64,000 nucleotides of DNA from a virus: positions 32,001 through 96,000 of IMG/VR virus record IMGVR_UViG_3300010354_015978. One strand, given 5' to 3'. Below the pieces are notes generated by a model, which made no database searches, was not told where the DNA came from, and was given only the letters and a program-made list of their open reading frames with translations. Within the stretch, counting starts at the first letter, position 1, and each line of letters opens with the position of its first letter. The translations under genes were made by a program, and so were the position numbers. Positions 24,391 to 36,183 of this stretch are shown here, in pieces.

Positions 24391-24861
24391 TTAGGCCACC
24401 ATGGCGCGCTGCAAGCGATCAGCGGCGTAACTGGCCGCAAACGCATTGGGCTTGACCATGGGGATGACATTGCAGGTACCGCGTATGTAACCAATGGCCT
24501 GCTGTATCACGCAACTGCTGCCGTAGTGATCGTTGGGGTTGATGTCAAGATGCACTTCAACTTCACGATCAGCCAGCACCGGTGACAGTCTTTGATACAT
24601 CTCACTGACACGATAAACTTCGTTCATGAGACGCATGCTGGGCCGGTCCACTCTCTGATCAAAGTCGCGCTCGCGCGAAACTTCGCCAAAAATTTTGCAA
24701 CCGTTGTTGCCATTGACATGCACCACGATGGCCACGGTGTATTCCGCCCACCAGGTATGACGGAAACGATACCTGACGCTATCAGCACCCAAGTACACCC
24801 TGGTGCCAGGTCCCTGTTGTTTAATGAAGTCCTGGACTTCTTGTAGGTTTATTTTTTGCAT
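24391..24861 (-). CDS. RNase H-like YkuK/DUF458 family protein
   Basis: VYLGADS, RLMNEV, EVHLDIN, KPNAFAASYAAD. Confidence 0.8.
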   Translation of the reverse strand: MQKINLQEVQDFIKQQGPGTRVYLGADSVRYRFRHTWWAEYTVAIVVHVNGNNGCKIFGEVSRERDFDQRVDRPSMRLMNEVYRVSEMYQRLSPVLADREVEVHLDINPNDHYGSSCVIQQAIGYIRGTCNVIPMVKPNAFAASYAADRLQRAMVA

Positions 24862-27684: not shown

Positions 27685-27759
27685 TGGTGCTGATGAGTGG
27701 GATCGAACCACCGGCTTCCTCCTTACCAAGGAGGTACTCTACCACTGAGTTACATCAGC
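27685..27759 (-). tRNA. tRNA-Thr(GGT)
   Basis: Loop TTGGTAA, CCA. Confidence 0.95.
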
Positions 27760-29314
27760 GTTGTTGTCTTGCCTGTTGCCAGACTATGTCTTTGTATTGC
27801 CTGGCCATGCGCCACTTGCGACGCACGATGTCGTCCCAGGGCAGTTGATCATAAGGAACACGGAACTGCTGTAGGTCATCGTAGCCCAGGCCCATGAATG
27901 TCCAGACCTGGTTGCTGGTGGGTCTGCGCACCACGCCAAAGTTGGCTTTGTCGCTGAGTTCACAGGCGCGGTAAAAGTCCATGTGATCGTTTTCCCAGTA
28001 CAGCACGTTGGGATTGTCCTCGCAGGGACGGATGTTGCGATAGCCGTACTTTTCGGGATTGAGCTCTATCTTGCTGGGATAGAGATTGTATCCACGGTAG
28101 AGGTAGAACGCCGGCATGGCATAACTGTCCAAGGGGTTTTCGCTGCTGCGCAACCACTCTATGGTCTGTTCTAGGCTTTCCTGTGTCTCGTGTGGCAGGC
28201 CTGCTATGAGACTGGCACTGAGCATGGTCTTGGGCCAGCGATGCCGGAGTTCTTGCAGTCCCGCCGTGATGCGTTCGCGATCGGCACTCTTGCCAATGGC
28301 GCTGCCGGTGCGTTTGTTGAGGCTCTCGATACCAAAGTGCGTGGCTCTGCATCCGCTTTCGTAGATCATGTCCATCTGATCACGGTGTGCCACGATGAGG
28401 TCCAGTCTTAGATAGGCCCAGTACTCCAGCTCAAATGGCAGCGCACGACTGAGATCCAACATGTACTGCACCTTCTCTCGGCTGTCGTTGAAGGTGTCAT
28501 CCAAGAGATAGTATCGCGTGATGCCATAGCGTTCGTAGTTTTCCACCATCTCGCGATACAAGAGATCGTGTCGCTTGATGTAGTCCAGTTTGTTCTTGCC
28601 ATTGAGCGGATAACTGCAAAATGCGCAGTGGAAGATGCATCCACGCGACACTTCTATGGGCAGGCTTTCGCCGGGCAAGACACCATCATAGGGCCGGTAA
28701 CTCATGGTGGAGTTCACAAAGTCATATGACTCGGCCCGGCGATCATCTATGATGGTCGGACCCCAGATGCTGCGCTGCCGTTTGGGCAGCCTGATGCCTT
28801 GGCTGAGGTGTTGTGCCAGCCATACTATGCTGAGGTCAGCGTAGCCTGGTATCACGTAGTCATAATCGCGATTGAAATCGCTGTCGTGTGCCAGGGGACC
28901 GCCCAACACAAACTTGACTCTGGGATTGATACCATGTACATGGGCTTTGAGCTGTTGGTTGTATTGATGTCCGTGTGGCAGCATGGCGCCGTTCATGCGG
29001 CTCATGCTGTGGCTCAACACCATGTCGCGATCTCGGGGCTCTGCGATGCTGTAGTCAAACTGCCGTATCTCGCGGTAAAACATGGGATTGAACCCAATGA
29101 ACAAGGTCTGGTCGCTGACCAGTCCCGACAGGATGTCAAAGATTTCCTCGGGAGCGAACACATGAGCGTGGTGCAGCACGAACACTTCAAACCCAGCCTG
29201 CCGGAGCTCATAGGCCACTTTGTAGGGCCCGTAACTCTTGGTCAGTCCGTATGTTTCAGTGATGTCCGAGATGAAAATTACGTTGGGGCGACTGTTGTCG
29301 AACCATTCGTTCAT
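27755..29314 (-). CDS. B12-binding-type radical SAM protein
   Basis: EVSRGCIFHCAFC, DDTFN, GIES; N-terminal Rossmann-like domain. Confidence 0.85.
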   Translation of the reverse strand: MNEWFDNSRPNVIFISDITETYGLTKSYGPYKVAYELRQAGFEVFVLHHAHVFAPEEIFDILSGLVSDQTLFIGFNPMFYREIRQFDYSIAEPRDRDMVLSHSMSRMNGAMLPHGHQYNQQLKAHVHGINPRVKFVLGGPLAHDSDFNRDYDYVIPGYADLSIVWLAQHLSQGIRLPKRQRSIWGPTIIDDRRAESYDFVNSTMSYRPYDGVLPGESLPIEVSRGCIFHCAFCSYPLNGKNKLDYIKRHDLLYREMVENYERYGITRYYLLDDTFNDSREKVQYMLDLSRALPFELEYWAYLRLDLIVAHRDQMDMIYESGCRATHFGIESLNKRTGSAIGKSADRERITAGLQELRHRWPKTMLSASLIAGLPHETQESLEQTIEWLRSSENPLDSYAMPAFYLYRGYNLYPSKIELNPEKYGYRNIRPCEDNPNVLYWENDHMDFYRACELSDKANFGVVRRPTSNQVWTFMGLGYDDLQQFRVPYDQLPWDDIVRRKWRMARQYKDIVWQQARQQR

Positions 29315-29806: not shown

Positions 29807-29950
29807 AAAAAAGAAATAGTAGGGGTTGAAGAAATCTGGTTCGTCTCTGGCACCTCGAGTATGCCTTGACCCTTGATACTCCCATCGCTGTGCGACAAAC
29901 CTTACACCAGAAGGTAGGGCGGGAAATTCTATTTATAACTGACAATAAAA

Positions 29951-30953: not shown

Positions 30954-31039
30954 TGGTGGGAAAGGAAGGATTCGAACCTACTCAGCCTATGGCGCCAGAT
31001 TTACAGTCTGGTGTGACTCTCCAACTTCACCGCTTGCCC
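30954..31039 (-). tRNA. tRNA-Tyr(GTA)
   Basis: Loop CTGTAAA, variable arm, CCA. Confidence 0.93.
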
Positions 31040-31044
31040 TTAAT

Positions 31045-31140
31045 TACTATATTGAAGCACTCTCTGTTATTTTTCGCAGAACTCACCTAAGAGTCGCCAT
31101 CCAAACACTGTAATACAGTTGAGAGTGCTTCAATATAGTA
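31045..31140. repeat. 20-bp perfect inverted repeat hairpin
   Basis: TACTATATTGAAGCACTCTC ... GAGAGTGCTTCAATATAGTA; related stem at 31566-31635. Confidence 0.85.
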
Positions 31141-31480
31141 AGGTGCTTCCCCCTGCTGGCGGTAATTATAGCGCATCAAGCATTGGGCTCTTCCTTACGG
31201 GTCCCAATACCATCACACACGCCTTCCACCCGCTTCCCAACACAGGGAGATTCTCGCATTGCCAGCGCCCTTCTCTGCCTAAGGGTAAGGTCCTGTGAGT
31301 CATGGTCTCACTTCTCATCGTGCGGACGCACACTATCCGATTATGAGTCGGAACGTTGGGATCACCGTTATGGACAGCAATCTCCCTGCTGCCGTTTGCG
31401 CTCTAGGACTTGTCCGGAATTTCGTCTCTTCGAGCACACTGGGCTGGTTATGGTGGTCACAGCCATTTTCCGGTGAATAC

Positions 31481-31556
<76 letters not shown>

Positions 31557-31822
31557 ATGAATTTCCATATTGAAGCACACTCACGGCTCTAAACCGCTGA
31601 ACAATACTGTGCTGATAGAATGCGCTTCAATATGGCACCACAAAACACATGATACAGGATCACGATTTTGTGGTCAACCATATGGCAGGGTCATGCCCTG
31701 CCCAGGAGTCTTACCAGCCGCGTTGCCGCCACGGCCTTCATGTATCCTGTCCGCCCGTTCGACCCATTTGTTGTACGCCGGTCCCACCCTCGTTGCGGTA
31801 TGGCGTATTAGTAAGTCTGTCT

Positions 31823-31851
31823 AGTATACACGACCACTGGGTCAGCGTCAA
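31823..31851 (-). promoter_or_regulatory. Sigma70 promoter internal to the tRNA island leader
   Basis: TTGACG-N17-TATACT. Confidence 0.8.
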
Positions 31852-31869
31852 CTAGTTTCTTACCATGCT

Positions 31870-31903
31870 AAACGAAAAACCCTGAGTCTTTCGATCTCAG
31901 GGT
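31870..31903 (-). terminator. Intrinsic terminator / attenuator hairpin
   Basis: ACCCTGAG-atcGAAAga-CTCAGGGT followed by TTTTCGTTT. Confidence 0.85.
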
Positions 31904-31934
31904 CCGGTGTAGTCTTGGTGCTTTGGCACTGTGT

Positions 31935-32060
31935 CTACCTGGACCCTCTCCGATCGCTGTTTTCAATCGATACAGTGAGGCCCTTGCCTGTGGCAAACCA
32001 ATAGGTTTGCATCACCGGGGTCTGGTGTATCGTTGATGATTTCAAACAGGAATTCTTCAT
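31935..32060 (-). CDS. Putative attenuator leader peptide containing all 20 amino acids (41 aa)
   Basis: MKNSCLKSSTIHQTPVMQTYWFATGKGLTVSIENSDRRGSR; lies between a promoter and a terminator; stop is inside an antiterminator arm. Confidence 0.7.
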   Translation of the reverse strand: MKNSCLKSSTIHQTPVMQTYWFATGKGLTVSIENSDRRGSR

Positions 32061-32070
32061 CACAGGTCCT

Positions 32071-32099
32071 AGTATATGCTCTTATATATGCCTTGTCAA
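32071..32099 (-). promoter_or_regulatory. Sigma70 promoter of the leader peptide
   Basis: TTGACA-N17-TATACT, 10 nt before the ATG. Confidence 0.85.
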
Positions 32100-32153
32100 G
32101 AACAATCTGGCAAAATAGGCGTTGTTTTTACGCAACAGCCTTTTCCAGCAAGA

Positions 32154-32534
32154 TCACGCTGGGGGAGTTGGCCAAATCACATCGGCAGCATTGGCGTAGT
32201 TCTGGGGCAAGTCGCGCAGCAGTTGACGATACGCTGCCCACTCAGCTCGCATGGTCTCGGCGCGATCCATGAGTTGTGTGTGATCGCACTCACGCAGCAA
32301 TCGATTGCGTTGGGCACGTACCAGTTCCCATGTGGCAGGTGCACTCACTGGCGCCTTGTCCACCAGTGTAAGTTCTCCGTGTACCACGAGAATTTCTTTG
32401 CCGTTGCTGTTGATCTCACGTATCAGTCTGGCATGGTCAACAGCATTGACCTCAATCATGTCATCGGGCAGAGAAGGATACCGGAATCTGCTGTCGTAAA
32501 AACGTCGAGTGCTGGGACTGTAAAGTATGGCCAT
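32154..32534 (-). CDS. Tail fibre assembly chaperone
   Basis: VRAQRNRLL..CD.TQL.D...WAAYRQ.LRDLP...IWPTPP motif; follows the fibre gene. Confidence 0.88.
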   Translation of the reverse strand: MAILYSPSTRRFYDSRFRYPSLPDDMIEVNAVDHARLIREINSNGKEILVVHGELTLVDKAPVSAPATWELVRAQRNRLLRECDHTQLMDRAETMRAEWAAYRQLLRDLPQNYANAADVIWPTPPA

Positions 32535-32535
32535 G

Positions 32536-35500
32536 TCAGTATCCTACCGCGATATAAAACAGTTGTGTGGGCACCGTGGCCTGACTCTGAGATCTTTGCG
32601 ACCACCAGGTAAAGGTGGCAGTGTCCAAAGCATAAACCATGGGCCAGTAGTCGTAATTGGAACCAAAAGCATTGTAGGTCATTGATATGCTCATGCAGGC
32701 TGTGGGAAATGCCACAGGGAAAGCCGCAGTGGGCAACTGACCTTCTGTCCAGTTGGCAAACCCACGGTCGATGCGACCCCACTGCACGATGATGCTGCGC
32801 CCGGTAACAGGATCAGCATCAAACACCATCCATCCAGTGAGTGTGTCGATGGATATGTTTTGAGACACTTGGGTGCCTGGAGTACCAGCAGGCCCTTGTG
32901 GACCAGTTGCGCCGTTGGTGCCATTGTTGCCCGGAGGCCCTTGTACGCCTTGGACACCTTGTGGACCTTGTGGACCCTGTGGGCCCGGTACACCGGCCAA
33001 GTTCACGGTCCAGGATGTAAATGATCCAGACCCCTGGGTGCTGGTTACATTGATGATCATCTGACCGCTGCCGCTGTTGTAGGTTTGGATGGTGCCTACC
33101 ATGTAGCGATTTGCATCGTAGGCCACGATCACAGTCTGTCCAGGTGAGTAGGCCAGTGCAGTGGCAGCAAACAGACTCTGGATGCCAGTGGTGATGCTCA
33201 GCGCTGTGGTACTGGTGGTGCTGTAGCGATCGCCAGGCAAACCTTGTGGACCTTGGGGACCCGTGATTGATGCACCAGCCGGGCCTGGAGGACCCGCAGG
33301 GCCCGCAGCACCAGCCGGGCCAGCGGGACCTTGTGGTCCCTGTGGACCAGGGGCGCCTTGTGCGCCAGTGGCACCAGGGGGGCCAGCGGGACCGGGAACA
33401 CCAGCAAGGTTTAGGCTCCAGGTATTGAAGGTGCCCGAGCCTTGTGTGGCAGTGACATTGATGGTGATGCTGCCAGTGTTGGTATTGTAGGTTTGCACCG
33501 TACCCACCATGTATCGCGTGGCATCTGCGGCCACGATAACAGTCTGACCCGGCGTGTAGGCCAGGCCTTGCCCTGGCAGGAAGGTTTTGAGTCCAGTGCC
33601 AATAGTGGTGCTGGAGCCTTCTGAGAACGTTTTGGAATATCTATCGCCCGCGGGACCTGGAAGTCCTTGTGCGCCGGCAGGACCGGCAGGACCGGCAGGA
33701 CCAGCAGCACCTTGTGGACCTGGTGTTCCGGCCGGGCCCGGAGGACCAGCCGGTCCGGTAGAACCAGCAGGACCCGTGATACCTTGTGGTCCAGGAGGAC
33801 CAGCAGGACCGGCAGGACCCTGTGGACCCGTGGCACCCTGTGGACCCGTGGCACCTGTGGCTCCGGCAGGGCCGGCAGGGCCAGTAGCACCGGCAGGACC
33901 TTGCGGACCCTGTGGGCCCGGAGCACCTGTGGCGCCTGCAAGGTTCACAGTCCAAGAGGTGTAGGTACCAGAACCGGTCTGCGATGTTACTACAAAAATC
34001 AGTTGTCCGTTGTTGACGTTGTAAGACGACACAGTGCCCTGCATGAAGTTGCCGCCATTGGCTGCAACCAGGATACTCTGTCCAGCACTATAGGCCAAGC
34101 CTGCCTGCACTGTAATGGTGTAGGTTCCGGATCCTATAGAGAAGGTATTGCTGCTGGTGGTGCTGTATCGATCACCCTGTGGTCCCTGTGGGCCCTGTGG
34201 TCCTTGGGCTCCGGCGGGACCTTGAGGACCTTGAGCTCCAGTGGGACCAGTTGGACCAATTGGGCCTTGCGGACCCACAGGACCTGTCGGACCTGCGGGA
34301 CCTTGGGCGCCTACTGCACCTGCCAGGCTGATGGCCCATTGTGCGTAACTGCCACCGCCCTGGATCGAGGTCACGTTGACAATACAGGCACCTGTGGTGG
34401 CATTGTAACTCTGTATCACGCCGTTCATGAGATTTTCAGAGTTGACTGACACGATCACGCTCTGGCCAGGTTGATAGGCCAGGCTGGGACCAATATTGAA
34501 ATTCTTCACGCCCACGCTGAGTGGTGTCAGTGTAGAAGTGAAACTTGAACTGTAGCGATCACCGGGCGCACCAGCAGGACCTGCAGGGCCAGTTGCACCT
34601 GCAGCACCGGCAGGACCAGCGGGACCTTGTGGTCCTTGCGGTCCCGGCAATCCTGTTGTGGGGCCAGGTGGTCCGCGTTCACCCTGTGGTCCCTGTGGAC
34701 CTGTGGCACCTTGCTGTCCAGGTTGTCCTTGTGGACCAGTGGCACCTTGTGGACCTTGCGCACCCGCAGTGCCCTGTGGACCCACGAGACCACTGAGGTT
34801 GATCACCCAGTCGGCATAGGTTCCCGATCCTACTACACTCAGCACGTTGACCAAGAGCTGACCGCTGTTGCGATTGTAGGATATCACACGTCCTTCCATG
34901 TAGGTAGACGCGGTGTTGGTCATGATTATGGGCTGCGCCGGTGTCAGCGCCAAGCCAGTGTCCGTGGTAAAGAAAACTTCGCCCAGGCGCATGGTCACGG
35001 CGGTGGTGCTGAGACCAAAGTATCTGTCGCCGCGCTGGCCGTCGGCTCCCGCGGGTCCTTGTGGACCAATGGGTCCTTGTGGTCCCGGCGGGCCCTGTTG
35101 GATGGTCGCGCTGATAGTGGCCAAGACACCGTTGCGCTCCACGGTGATAAAGTCACCGCCCTGGATGTCTACGATGCCGGTGTTTTCAATAAAGGTCTGA
35201 CCAAGATAGGTGGTGGCATTGATGCCAGTACCACCGGTCACTGTGAGCACACCGGTGTTGTTGACCGTGATGTTGCCCTGTGTCTGTATGGGACCGCCCT
35301 GCACTGATATGCCAGGACCTGCAGTGATACCAATCTCGCTCACACCCGACGTGGGCACCACGATGTCGCTGGTGCCATCAAACAGGATACCGTTGATGAG
35401 CCGGCCCGGCGATAGTTTGCTGGCGCTGCTGGCCAGGCCCTTGAATTCTATCGTGGGCAGCAAATTGATGCCCACCACCAGGGTCTCAAAGCCCGCAGGA

Positions 35501-36183
35501 CGATCTGCTGGCAGTATGGTAAAGGCATCTTTGCTGATGATGGCCAGAGCCGTGCCATCCACATAGGCCACAATCACAGCATGTTCGTCAAAGTTAGTGT
35601 CGCGCATCATCTCGCTGCTCCAGCGAGTGATGGCAAAGTTGGAAACGTTTTCGGGACCCACGAAATACCAGGCATTGTCGCGATATACGAACAGTTGATC
35701 GCTGGTATTGTCAAAGTACATCTGTCCCTGCAGGGCGTTGTCAGGCGGGGTAGCAGTGACCTGTATGAGATTGACCGGAGCCCATCCGCCCACGATGGTG
35801 TCATTACGTATGGTCAGGAACTGTGTGGCGGGATTGTACCAAAGGTCGCCGTTGTTGAGGCTGGTAGTGGGCTCGTCAACATCAAAGTACACAGTGTAGA
35901 TGGGCTTCCAAGATCCCTGCTCGGGCAGTATGGTGGGATCACCCTGCCAGGCATACATCTTGTCGTTGGACGTGTTCCACCACAACTGTCCCTCGATGGG
36001 GTTGGGCGGTGGGCTGTCATCAGCGAAATTCTCCAACTGATGCACTAGATTCTCTACTTCGTATTCGCCGTAGGGAGTGACGTTGCGTCCCACCAGTGTT
36101 TGACTGGTAGCGGTTGTATTGATAGTGCCGTCTTCTACGACTGCAATCACCTGTCCACGACTGTTGTTTACGATATACGCCAT
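32536..36183 (-). CDS. Collagen-repeat tail fibre protein
   Basis: Gly-X-Y tracts alternating with five GDRY-domain repeats; C-terminal IVQWG...FP.AFP.AC...YIAVGY tip domain. Confidence 0.88.

Follow-up and report, generated by a model that had tools for sequence, protein, structure and literature searches.

Enterobacteria have multivalent leader-peptide attenuators, among them the thr leader, with codons for Thr and Ile, and the ilvGMEDA leader, with codons for Ile, Leu and Val; trpL, hisL and pheL are further leaders of the group. A leader element of related design was analyzed in a 110,675-base virus contig (IMG/VR record IMGVR_UViG_3300010354_015978, completeness estimate ~32%, about one third). 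The window, meaning the whole stretch of 64,000 nucleotides (nt) that was analyzed, corresponds to positions 32,001 to 96,000 of this record. The element lies on the minus strand upstream of an island of transfer RNA (tRNA) genes that is closed by a transfer-messenger RNA (tmRNA) gene. It appears to be a ribosome-mediated (leader-peptide) transcription attenuator that would raise transcription of the tRNA array when decoding slows, a reading to which we give, from sequence comparison and folding models, a probability of roughly 0.7. These phages, in other words, probably make more of their own tRNAs when ribosomes run slowly.

The phage element shares with the enterobacterial attenuators a short leader open reading frame (ORF), an intrinsic terminator, an antiterminator that excludes it, and a stop codon so placed that a finishing ribosome would remove the antiterminator. 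In both, the leader's amino-acid content is related to the cargo. Unlike the enterobacterial systems, however, the phage cargo consists of tRNA genes, not biosynthetic enzymes, and the leader has no run of a single codon but ~1-2 codons for each of the 20 amino acids. In addition, the untranslated phage leader is predicted to read through instead of superattenuating, and several of the phage lineages have a leaderless mRNA.

The nearest published case is a bacterial array. The trn operon of Anabaena sp. PCC 7120 holds ~26 tRNA genes and is induced by translational stress (PMC8421152, PMC10272220). Like the phage island it is an accessory tRNA array, one whose low expression rises when translation is impaired. 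Unlike the phage device, it is controlled at the promoter, where direct repeats are bound by the repressor TrcR, and the strings 'attenuat', 'leader' and 'terminator' are absent from the text of PMC8421152. A second likeness is to short ORFs whose translation speed sets downstream expression, E. coli toiL (PMC12121999) and the mycobacterial poly-Cys ORFs (10.1101/834739), the latter leaderless. They are reported to sense antibiotics or a single amino acid, and their targets are protein-coding genes, not tRNA genes; none samples all amino acids as the phage leader does. Full-text literature searches found no published leader-peptide or attenuator control of phage tRNA genes. An attenuator that reads general decoding capacity would give phage tRNA arrays an inducible, feedback-controlled role, not one purely of codon usage. 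It would also extend leader-peptide attenuation to non-coding cargo and to a sensor with 'one codon of everything'.

The locus has the following features, listed in the direction of transcription.

ends at 32154, minus strand: tail-assembly-chaperone gene (PF16778); the leader promoter comes next
32099-32071, minus strand: leader promoter, sigma-70-type, TTGACA-N17-TATACT, 11/12 consensus matches
32060-31935, minus strand: leader ORF of 41 codons plus TAG (ATG at 32060, TAG at 31937-31935), by translation and frame check
32010-31993, minus strand: hairpin H1 within the ORF, GCAAACC-UAUU-GGUUUGC, holding the single Trp codon; from folding, with a family equivalent
31970-31950, minus strand: hairpin H2 within the ORF, UCGAUUG...CGAUCGG, holding Asp-Arg codons; from folding and the family consensus
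31947-31899, minus strand: antiterminator (helix P1 plus hairpin P2) enclosing the stop codon; from the minimum-energy fold and covariation
31903-31870, minus strand: intrinsic terminator ACCCUGAG-AUCGAAAGA-CUCAGGGU with a U run; stem 31903-31879, -14.5 kcal/mol
31851-31823, minus strand: second promoter-like site, TTGACG-N17-TATACT, 10/12, downstream of the terminator
31796-31700, minus strand: conserved structured RNA, core AACGAGG...GCGUAC...AACGGGCGG...GGAU, by motif and covariation
31677-31649, minus strand: third promoter-like site, TTGACC-N17-TATCAT, 10/12, directly before the tRNA-Trp gene
31556-21078, minus strand: presumed regulated cargo on the same strand as the leader, with 24 tRNA genes, ORFs and a permuted tmRNA

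The ATG lies 10 nt past the end of the -10 box, so that the mRNA is nearly leaderless. The ORF is the sole open frame across the leader stretch. It encodes the peptide MKNSCLKSSTIHQTPVMQTYWFATGKGLTVSIENSDRRGSR, which has 20 distinct amino acids; among its 35 different codons are all four for Thr as well as ATA, AGA, AGG and CGG. The 206-nt leader stretch folds far more stably than shuffled sequence (z = -4.1). In its minimum-energy fold the 5' strand of P1, AGGGUCC-A-GGUAG (31947-31935), pairs with the 3' strand CUAC-ACC-GGACCCU (31912-31899), and the hairpin P2, GUGC-CAAA-GCAC (31929-31918), lies inside P1. Counted from the first base of the stop codon, the terminator stem starts 31 nt downstream, and its first 5 nt, ACCCU, are common to the P1 3' strand. 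The sequence-only reading of this stretch had described the consensus promoter, the nearly leaderless complete ORF, the terminator ACCCUGAG/CUCAGGGU with its T run, the pairing of the ORF end and stop with a segment that removes ACCCT from the terminator stem, the second promoter, and the array of 24 tRNAs and a tmRNA downstream. All of these are present on the minus strand as claimed, and the helix in question is part of the minimum-energy fold.

The proposed mechanism is as follows. Host RNA polymerase would start at the strong promoter and transcribe the near-leaderless ORF holding every amino acid, the end of which would fall inside the stable P1/P2 structure. If translation runs smoothly to the stop, the ribosome would open P1, the terminator, 31 nt past the stop, would fold, and transcription would end at about 31870. 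If the ribosome is delayed at an earlier codon, or was never loaded, P1 would form first and, through the shared ACCCU, would hold half of the terminator stem. The polymerase would then read on into the downstream RNA, the tRNA genes and the tmRNA gene. With all 20 amino acids represented in the leader, transcription of the array should rise when almost any charged tRNA runs short. Slowed decoding would presumably be the physiological trigger of the switch.

Relatives of the unit were gathered through the terminator, using its exact 31-mer or looser patterns, or through the downstream RNA motif, and never through the ORF. The sample comprises 90 distinct leader units; they come from contigs of uncultured phages, and each of them adjoins a tRNA array. 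The exact 31-mer recurs in four other IMG/VR contigs with unalignable flanks, and the looser patterns led to further viral and metagenome contigs. Each relative found through the terminator has a promoter, an ORF of 38-46 codons, a P1-type helix and a terminator, followed by tRNA genes; in every locus with enough sequence, the tRNA genes follow the leader unit on the same strand. The start signals vary. Some relatives have a consensus promoter 6-11 nt before the ATG, others a Shine-Dalgarno-like or A-rich leader, and such starts are compatible with leader translation. Measured from the -10 box, the ATG of relatives was placed at 6-8 nt. The leader ORF is presumably translated. Short ORFs with the stop/antiterminator geometry, which the sequence-only reading proposed to look for upstream of tRNA arrays in related phages, were found in ~80-90 diverged units. 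A covariance model of the 3' domain (R1) has a single match in the window, at 31872-31946 (57.7 bits). Relative L086 has a second, weak match to the model; as no ORF on that strand reaches 28 codons, this match was left out of the count.

The family is confined, as far as these searches reach, to uncultured phages. The terminator pattern had no match in 185,579 prokaryote genomes, and no relatives were obtained through the neighboring tail-assembly-chaperone protein. Searches of GenBank phages by blastn with the window region and a main-clade unit gave only tRNA matches or nothing, and identified no cultured phage with the element. The downstream-RNA pattern matched prokaryote genomes at about the chance rate, in GC-rich genomes, save for one contig. 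This 183-kb contig belongs to a metagenome-assembled genome (MAG) of Haliscomenobacter sp. (NZ_JBBAKG010000001.1) and carries, at L180:5676-5760 on the minus strand, an attenuator 3' domain (53.5 bits) together with the downstream RNA. It is the only prokaryote-genome record, among the matches listed, with both. It is either a host clue, pointing to Bacteroidota, or a contig of phage origin that was assigned to the MAG in binning.

The geometry of the switch is conserved. A hairpin with a U run follows the stop codon by 24-40 nt (median 30) in 87 of the 90 units. In E. coli a terminator 28 base pairs (bp) after the stop is ~90% efficient, and one only 5 bp after the stop is less than 10% efficient (PMC4824070). 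By these E. coli data, a ribosome sitting on the stop codon would not mask the phage terminator at its distance of 24-40 nt. The terminators of the family comprise 52 distinct sequences, and their stems covary. In 79 of 87 units, at least 4 of the 6 bases with which the terminator begins are bound up in P1, an overlap of 4-6 nt. In each of the 80 units examined the stop codon lies between the P1 strands, at a distance of 3-34 nt from where the 5' strand begins, so completing the ORF requires opening P1.

Plain MAFFT alignment misregisters the P1 5' strand, and covariation was therefore assessed by anchored counting and by a covariance-model alignment. The anchored count found exchanges of whole base pairs at P1 positions 4-6 (UA 44/GC 26, CG 31/UA 30 and CG 54/UA 8), with pairing in 81-87% of cases against 5-57% with a slid partner. 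In the covariance-model alignment, which contains 89 matches, pairing is seen in 92.3% of cells (slid controls, at most 69%) and 125 cells show double changes, compared with 34.9 +/- 9 in shuffles, of which 0 of 500 reach 125. This alignment is fitted to the model, which makes the anchored count the less biased of the two.

Folding energies show a thermodynamic preference for P1. The antiterminator domain has a median stability of -22.9 kcal/mol, compared with -14.2 kcal/mol for the terminator, and in 68 of 87 units the naked 3' domain has a minimum-energy fold that lacks the terminator. Helix probabilities were obtained by constrained partition-function folding, an equilibrium model. In this model the family medians for naked RNA are 0.97 for P1 and 0.02 for the terminator; with a ribosome footprint blocked at the stop they become 0.02 and 0.90. 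Blocking the stop region thus shifts the fold in the direction expected from the sequence-only reading. For the window itself the P1 and terminator probabilities are 0.62 and 0.42 in naked RNA, 0.91 and 0.26 with a stall at codon 25, and 0.00 and 0.97 with a ribosome at the stop. The position of the ribosome would, in this model, decide termination.

No anti-antiterminator (1:2 hairpin) was found; neither H1 nor H2 was found to pair with the P1 5' strand. Likewise, no segment that would sequester this strand in untranslated RNA was found. Read-through is therefore predicted when ribosomes are absent, and untranslated RNA should read through, in contrast to the superattenuation of trp. Few relatives offer the polymerase another start. 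Only 10 of 85 have a promoter of at least 10/12 between the terminator and the downstream RNA, leaving 75 of 85 without one, and in 32 relatives the spacer between these two elements is just 21-49 nt. With so few post-terminator promoters and such short spacers, the tRNAs of most members appear to be reachable by read-through only.

The amino-acid content of the leaders provides the second line of evidence. In the window alone such completeness is unexceptional, the full set of 20 amino acids being present in 2 of 173 ORFs of 35-45 codons. It therefore had to be judged across relatives, where the picture is different. When the best short ORF within 450 nt upstream was taken at 107 non-redundant loci, 20 amino acids were found in 60, 19 in 19 and 18 in 11. 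The same procedure applied to 3,997 random 450-nt windows of the same loci gave 20 amino acids in 0.98%. Among the unique leaders, 58 of 90 have all 20 amino acids in ~45 codons. By chance 0.2-1.7% of real-protein windows would be complete, 0.5-3% of independent draws and 4.4% with uniform composition; draws from the leaders' own flattened composition are complete in 1-4%. When the 90 leaders are grouped at 50% identity into 25 clusters, the median is 20 amino acids in 12 clusters and at least one member is complete in 16. The completeness is thus non-random. The 20-amino-acid content sets the leader apart from comparable ORFs not within the window but across relatives, where it lies far above chance.

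These data bear directly on one alternative, a chance ORF beside an ordinary terminator of the upstream tail-fibre operon. The 2 of 173 window ORFs would have allowed it. The unit, however, has its own consensus promoter after the tail-assembly-chaperone gene, and its architecture and completeness recur in ~90 diverged units; the comparative data already contradict this explanation, and its probability is negligible.

A typical leader has six amino acids present only once, and when 20 residues are redrawn at random completeness survives in only 10% of trials. The peptide sequence, in the meantime, evolves almost neutrally: the ratio of nonsynonymous to synonymous differences (pN/pS) is 0.62 in 14 disjoint close pairs, with the differences spread over all three codon positions. 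Judged from these comparisons, what is maintained in the leaders is completeness, not sequence. The missing amino acids follow the arrays. Incomplete leaders with at least 8 tRNAs visible downstream lack 25 amino acids in all, of which 3 have a tRNA gene in the array compared with 15.5 expected. Large arrays are preceded by complete leaders, and the amino acids missing from leaders are mostly without a downstream tRNA gene. The attenuator proposed in the sequence-only reading gains from each of these results. The ORF, the stop within the antiterminator and the overlap of 4-6 nt are kept in ~80-90 units with compensatory changes, completeness is above chance while the peptide drifts, and the unit always stands before tRNA genes.

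Inside the ORF two hairpins are conserved. An equivalent of H1, with a nearly invariant TGG, is present family-wide, and H2 has the family consensus GCGAUUA...UGAUCGC, with nearly invariant codons in its columns. The stems of H1 and H2 are built from the Trp codon and the Ala-Ile...Asp-Arg codons, all of them almost fixed. The conserved Trp and Asp-Arg had been considered as peptide motifs; this was rejected, as the exact codons are kept as RNA stems. Likewise, a C-terminal likeness between leaders ('RVRE/GSQE') is the P1 strand GGGUCC read in different frames. H1 and H2 are perhaps pause hairpins that synchronize ribosome and polymerase.

The near-invariance in position of a Trp, an Asp-Arg and a Gly is what a nascent-peptide or drug-type stalling sensor would show, that is, a leader that responds through an arrest motif to one signal, such as a ribosome-targeting compound or a metabolite, and not to general tRNA supply. 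Upstream ORFs that sense translation stress are known, for example toiL (PMC12121999) and the mycobacterial poly-Cys ORFs (10.1101/834739). The invariant codons sit, however, in the RNA stems H1, H2 and P1 with the exact codons kept, the spacing of Trp, Asp and stop differs among lineages, and pN/pS is 0.62. A specific arrest motif also needs no set of 20 amino acids. A sensor of this type is quite improbable.

Several covarying hairpins followed by an antiterminator/terminator expression platform would also fit a ligand- or tRNA-binding, riboswitch-like leader in which the aptamer would consist of H1, H2 and P1, and the ORF would be incidental. T-box leaders, which sense tRNA, are a precedent. 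The leader matched no Rfam 15 family at the gathering threshold. A scan of 31000-32400 with E up to 10 gave only tRNA-Trp and chance matches to microRNA, mascRNA-menRNA and CRISPR-repeat models, and no T-box match even at E = 10. Every member has a single open frame, which starts either where the transcript does or downstream of a Shine-Dalgarno-like sequence, and completeness is visible only at the level of translation. A riboswitch-like leader is accordingly very unlikely, more so than a stalling sensor.

Several observations weigh against attenuation by a leader peptide as proposed here. In the equilibrium model 27 of 81 units can still form P1 with a ribosome at the stop; in these 27 the P1 5' strand sits just behind the ribosome footprint. 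If the ribosome footprint is modeled strictly, most units have 19, not 20, amino acids in their first ~35 'sensing' codons, and Glu, Asp and Val are often present only near the stop. The window leader has one Phe codon, yet the window array (on a contig ~32% complete) has no tRNA-Phe. The synonymous codons of the leaders are not enriched for those read by the array (400 against 412.6 expected, z = -1.0). The codons in conserved columns are nearly invariant, which makes the whole leader a conserved structured RNA as well. Finally, the two promoter-like sites that follow the terminator in the window (31851-31823 and 31677-31649) mean that its tRNAs need not depend on read-through. In the window phage, attenuation can do no more than place an inducible component on top of basal expression, a caution that the sequence-only reading had given for the first of these sites.

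The codon result narrows the proposal. That the leader samples nearly the whole decoding system, as first suggested, stands for amino acids, with 58 of 90 leaders complete, but not for synonymous codons, which are unmatched to the array anticodons. Sampling is at the amino-acid level, not the codon level, and an 'all-codon' version of the sensor is unsupported.

The promoters and the conserved structure bear on the strongest alternative, in which the unit is a self-contained small gene or dual-function small RNA. Its ~190-nt transcript or 41-residue peptide would act in trans, the tRNAs would have their own promoters, and the overlap with P1 would only stabilize the 3' end. The promoter-like sites after the window terminator would serve such an arrangement, and the whole transcript is conserved and strongly structured, as seen in the z of -4.1, in H1 and H2 and in the near-invariant codons. 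A terminated attenuator RNA can also act in trans, as is reported for rnTrpL (PMC6614838). In the family at large, though, 75 of 85 relatives lack a strong post-terminator promoter and the spacer is often 21-49 nt. The overlap of P1 and terminator is conserved at 4-6 nt and makes the helices mutually exclusive. A trans-acting product leaves unexplained both the amino-acid completeness of a drifting sequence and the correspondence of missing amino acids with missing tRNAs. Five leader peptides compared with Pfam and PHROGs matched no family at E up to 0.1. A trans-acting RNA or peptide is thus unlikely, though it is the least unlikely of the alternatives to leader-peptide attenuation.

A second conserved RNA lies between the terminator and the first tRNA gene in every lineage. 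Its family core is AACGAGG...GCAC-UUUAAAC...AACGGGCGG-N6-GGAUG, and it was found in at least 120 IMG/VR contigs; the loci include L002:2986-3125, L042:1258-1397 and about 130 others. Of its predicted pairs 9 of 10 covary, and two helices are supported by covariation. The invariant single-stranded blocks are AACGAGG, GCAC-UUUAAAC, AACGGGCGG, GGAUG and GAAAAAU. No Rfam 15 family matched this RNA. The Rfam 15 matches obtained overall are to tRNA, tmRNA, COG2908 RNA and, in relative L033, GOLLD RNA, all of them elsewhere than the leader and the downstream RNA. The GCACUUUAAACA block of the downstream RNA may resemble the boxA of rrn operons. A possible role of this RNA is to ready the polymerase or the transcript for an array that is long and untranslated. 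As a second unexplained element, present in at least 120 contigs and not in Rfam, it deserves a study of its own.

About half of the relatives have a further conserved ORF of ~50 codons (M..K..EW...HTLTKEQ...) between the terminator and the downstream RNA, which the window lacks. It had no significant Pfam or PHROGs match.

L002:2826-2978, L042:1094-1246 and L046:4458-4619: examples of the ~50-codon ORF, with a Shine-Dalgarno sequence in the examples read

From these sequence comparisons, the putative regulator is conserved in a large family of uncultured phages and is coupled to a second, unclassified conserved RNA. A more general proposal may be put forward tentatively, at somewhat less than even odds. 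Widespread uncultured, mostly large phages would carry a universal 'decoding gauge', in which the translation time of a mini-ORF sets read-through into the tRNA/tmRNA island, possibly with assistance from the downstream RNA. If this is true, loss or uncharging of almost any host tRNA would switch on a replacement set automatically, and anticodon nucleases, starvation and host shut-off would be possible triggers. An attenuator of this kind would tie phage tRNA arrays directly to host defenses that cut or deplete tRNAs; that counter-defense is the purpose of the leader is speculation. At ~190 nt, and with a promoter of the E. coli type, the leader would also be a compact natural part with which to report on translation health. 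The size of the family gives strong comparative constraints, and the device can be tested directly in cell-free systems.

The island itself begins with a tRNA-Trp gene at 31556. Its 24 tRNA genes span 31556-22971 on the minus strand and cover 19 amino acids, with Phe uncovered; no tRNA-Phe, intron-containing forms included, was found in the 110-kb contig. Further genes of the island are the following.

27758-29314, minus strand: radical SAM protein of 519 residues
25470-26075, minus strand: SAM-dependent methyltransferase
24394-24861, minus strand: RNase H-like protein
21431-21078, minus strand: permuted (two-piece) tmRNA of the betaproteobacterial type, tag ANDDLYALAA, closing the island; by Rfam

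The three protein genes are possible candidates for tRNA-modifying or -processing enzymes co-transcribed with the tRNAs. Relative L002 also has a permuted tmRNA.

Other structured RNAs occur within these arrays. In the window, a COG2908 RNA motif (Rfam) lies between the tRNA-Pro and tRNA-Leu genes at 29880-29924 on the minus strand, with 67 bits against a gathering score of 58.7. Two long spacers among the tRNA-Trp, tRNA-Tyr and tRNA-Glu genes, 31142-31475 and 31044-31141 on the minus strand, are free of ORFs and rich in hairpins. ARAGORN found no tRNA in either spacer, and for the 21-bp stem at 31044-31141 Rfam gave only weak, chance-level microRNA matches. GOLLD RNA had no match in the window. 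In relative L033 it is present at L033:1864-2326 on the plus strand (201.7 bits), with an embedded tRNA, in the tRNA array 1.4 kb downstream of the attenuator. On the other side of the window unit, at 32536-36183 on the minus strand, lies a tail-fibre-like ORF of 1,215 residues, in which many collagen-like Gly-X-Y tracts alternate with repeated globular segments.

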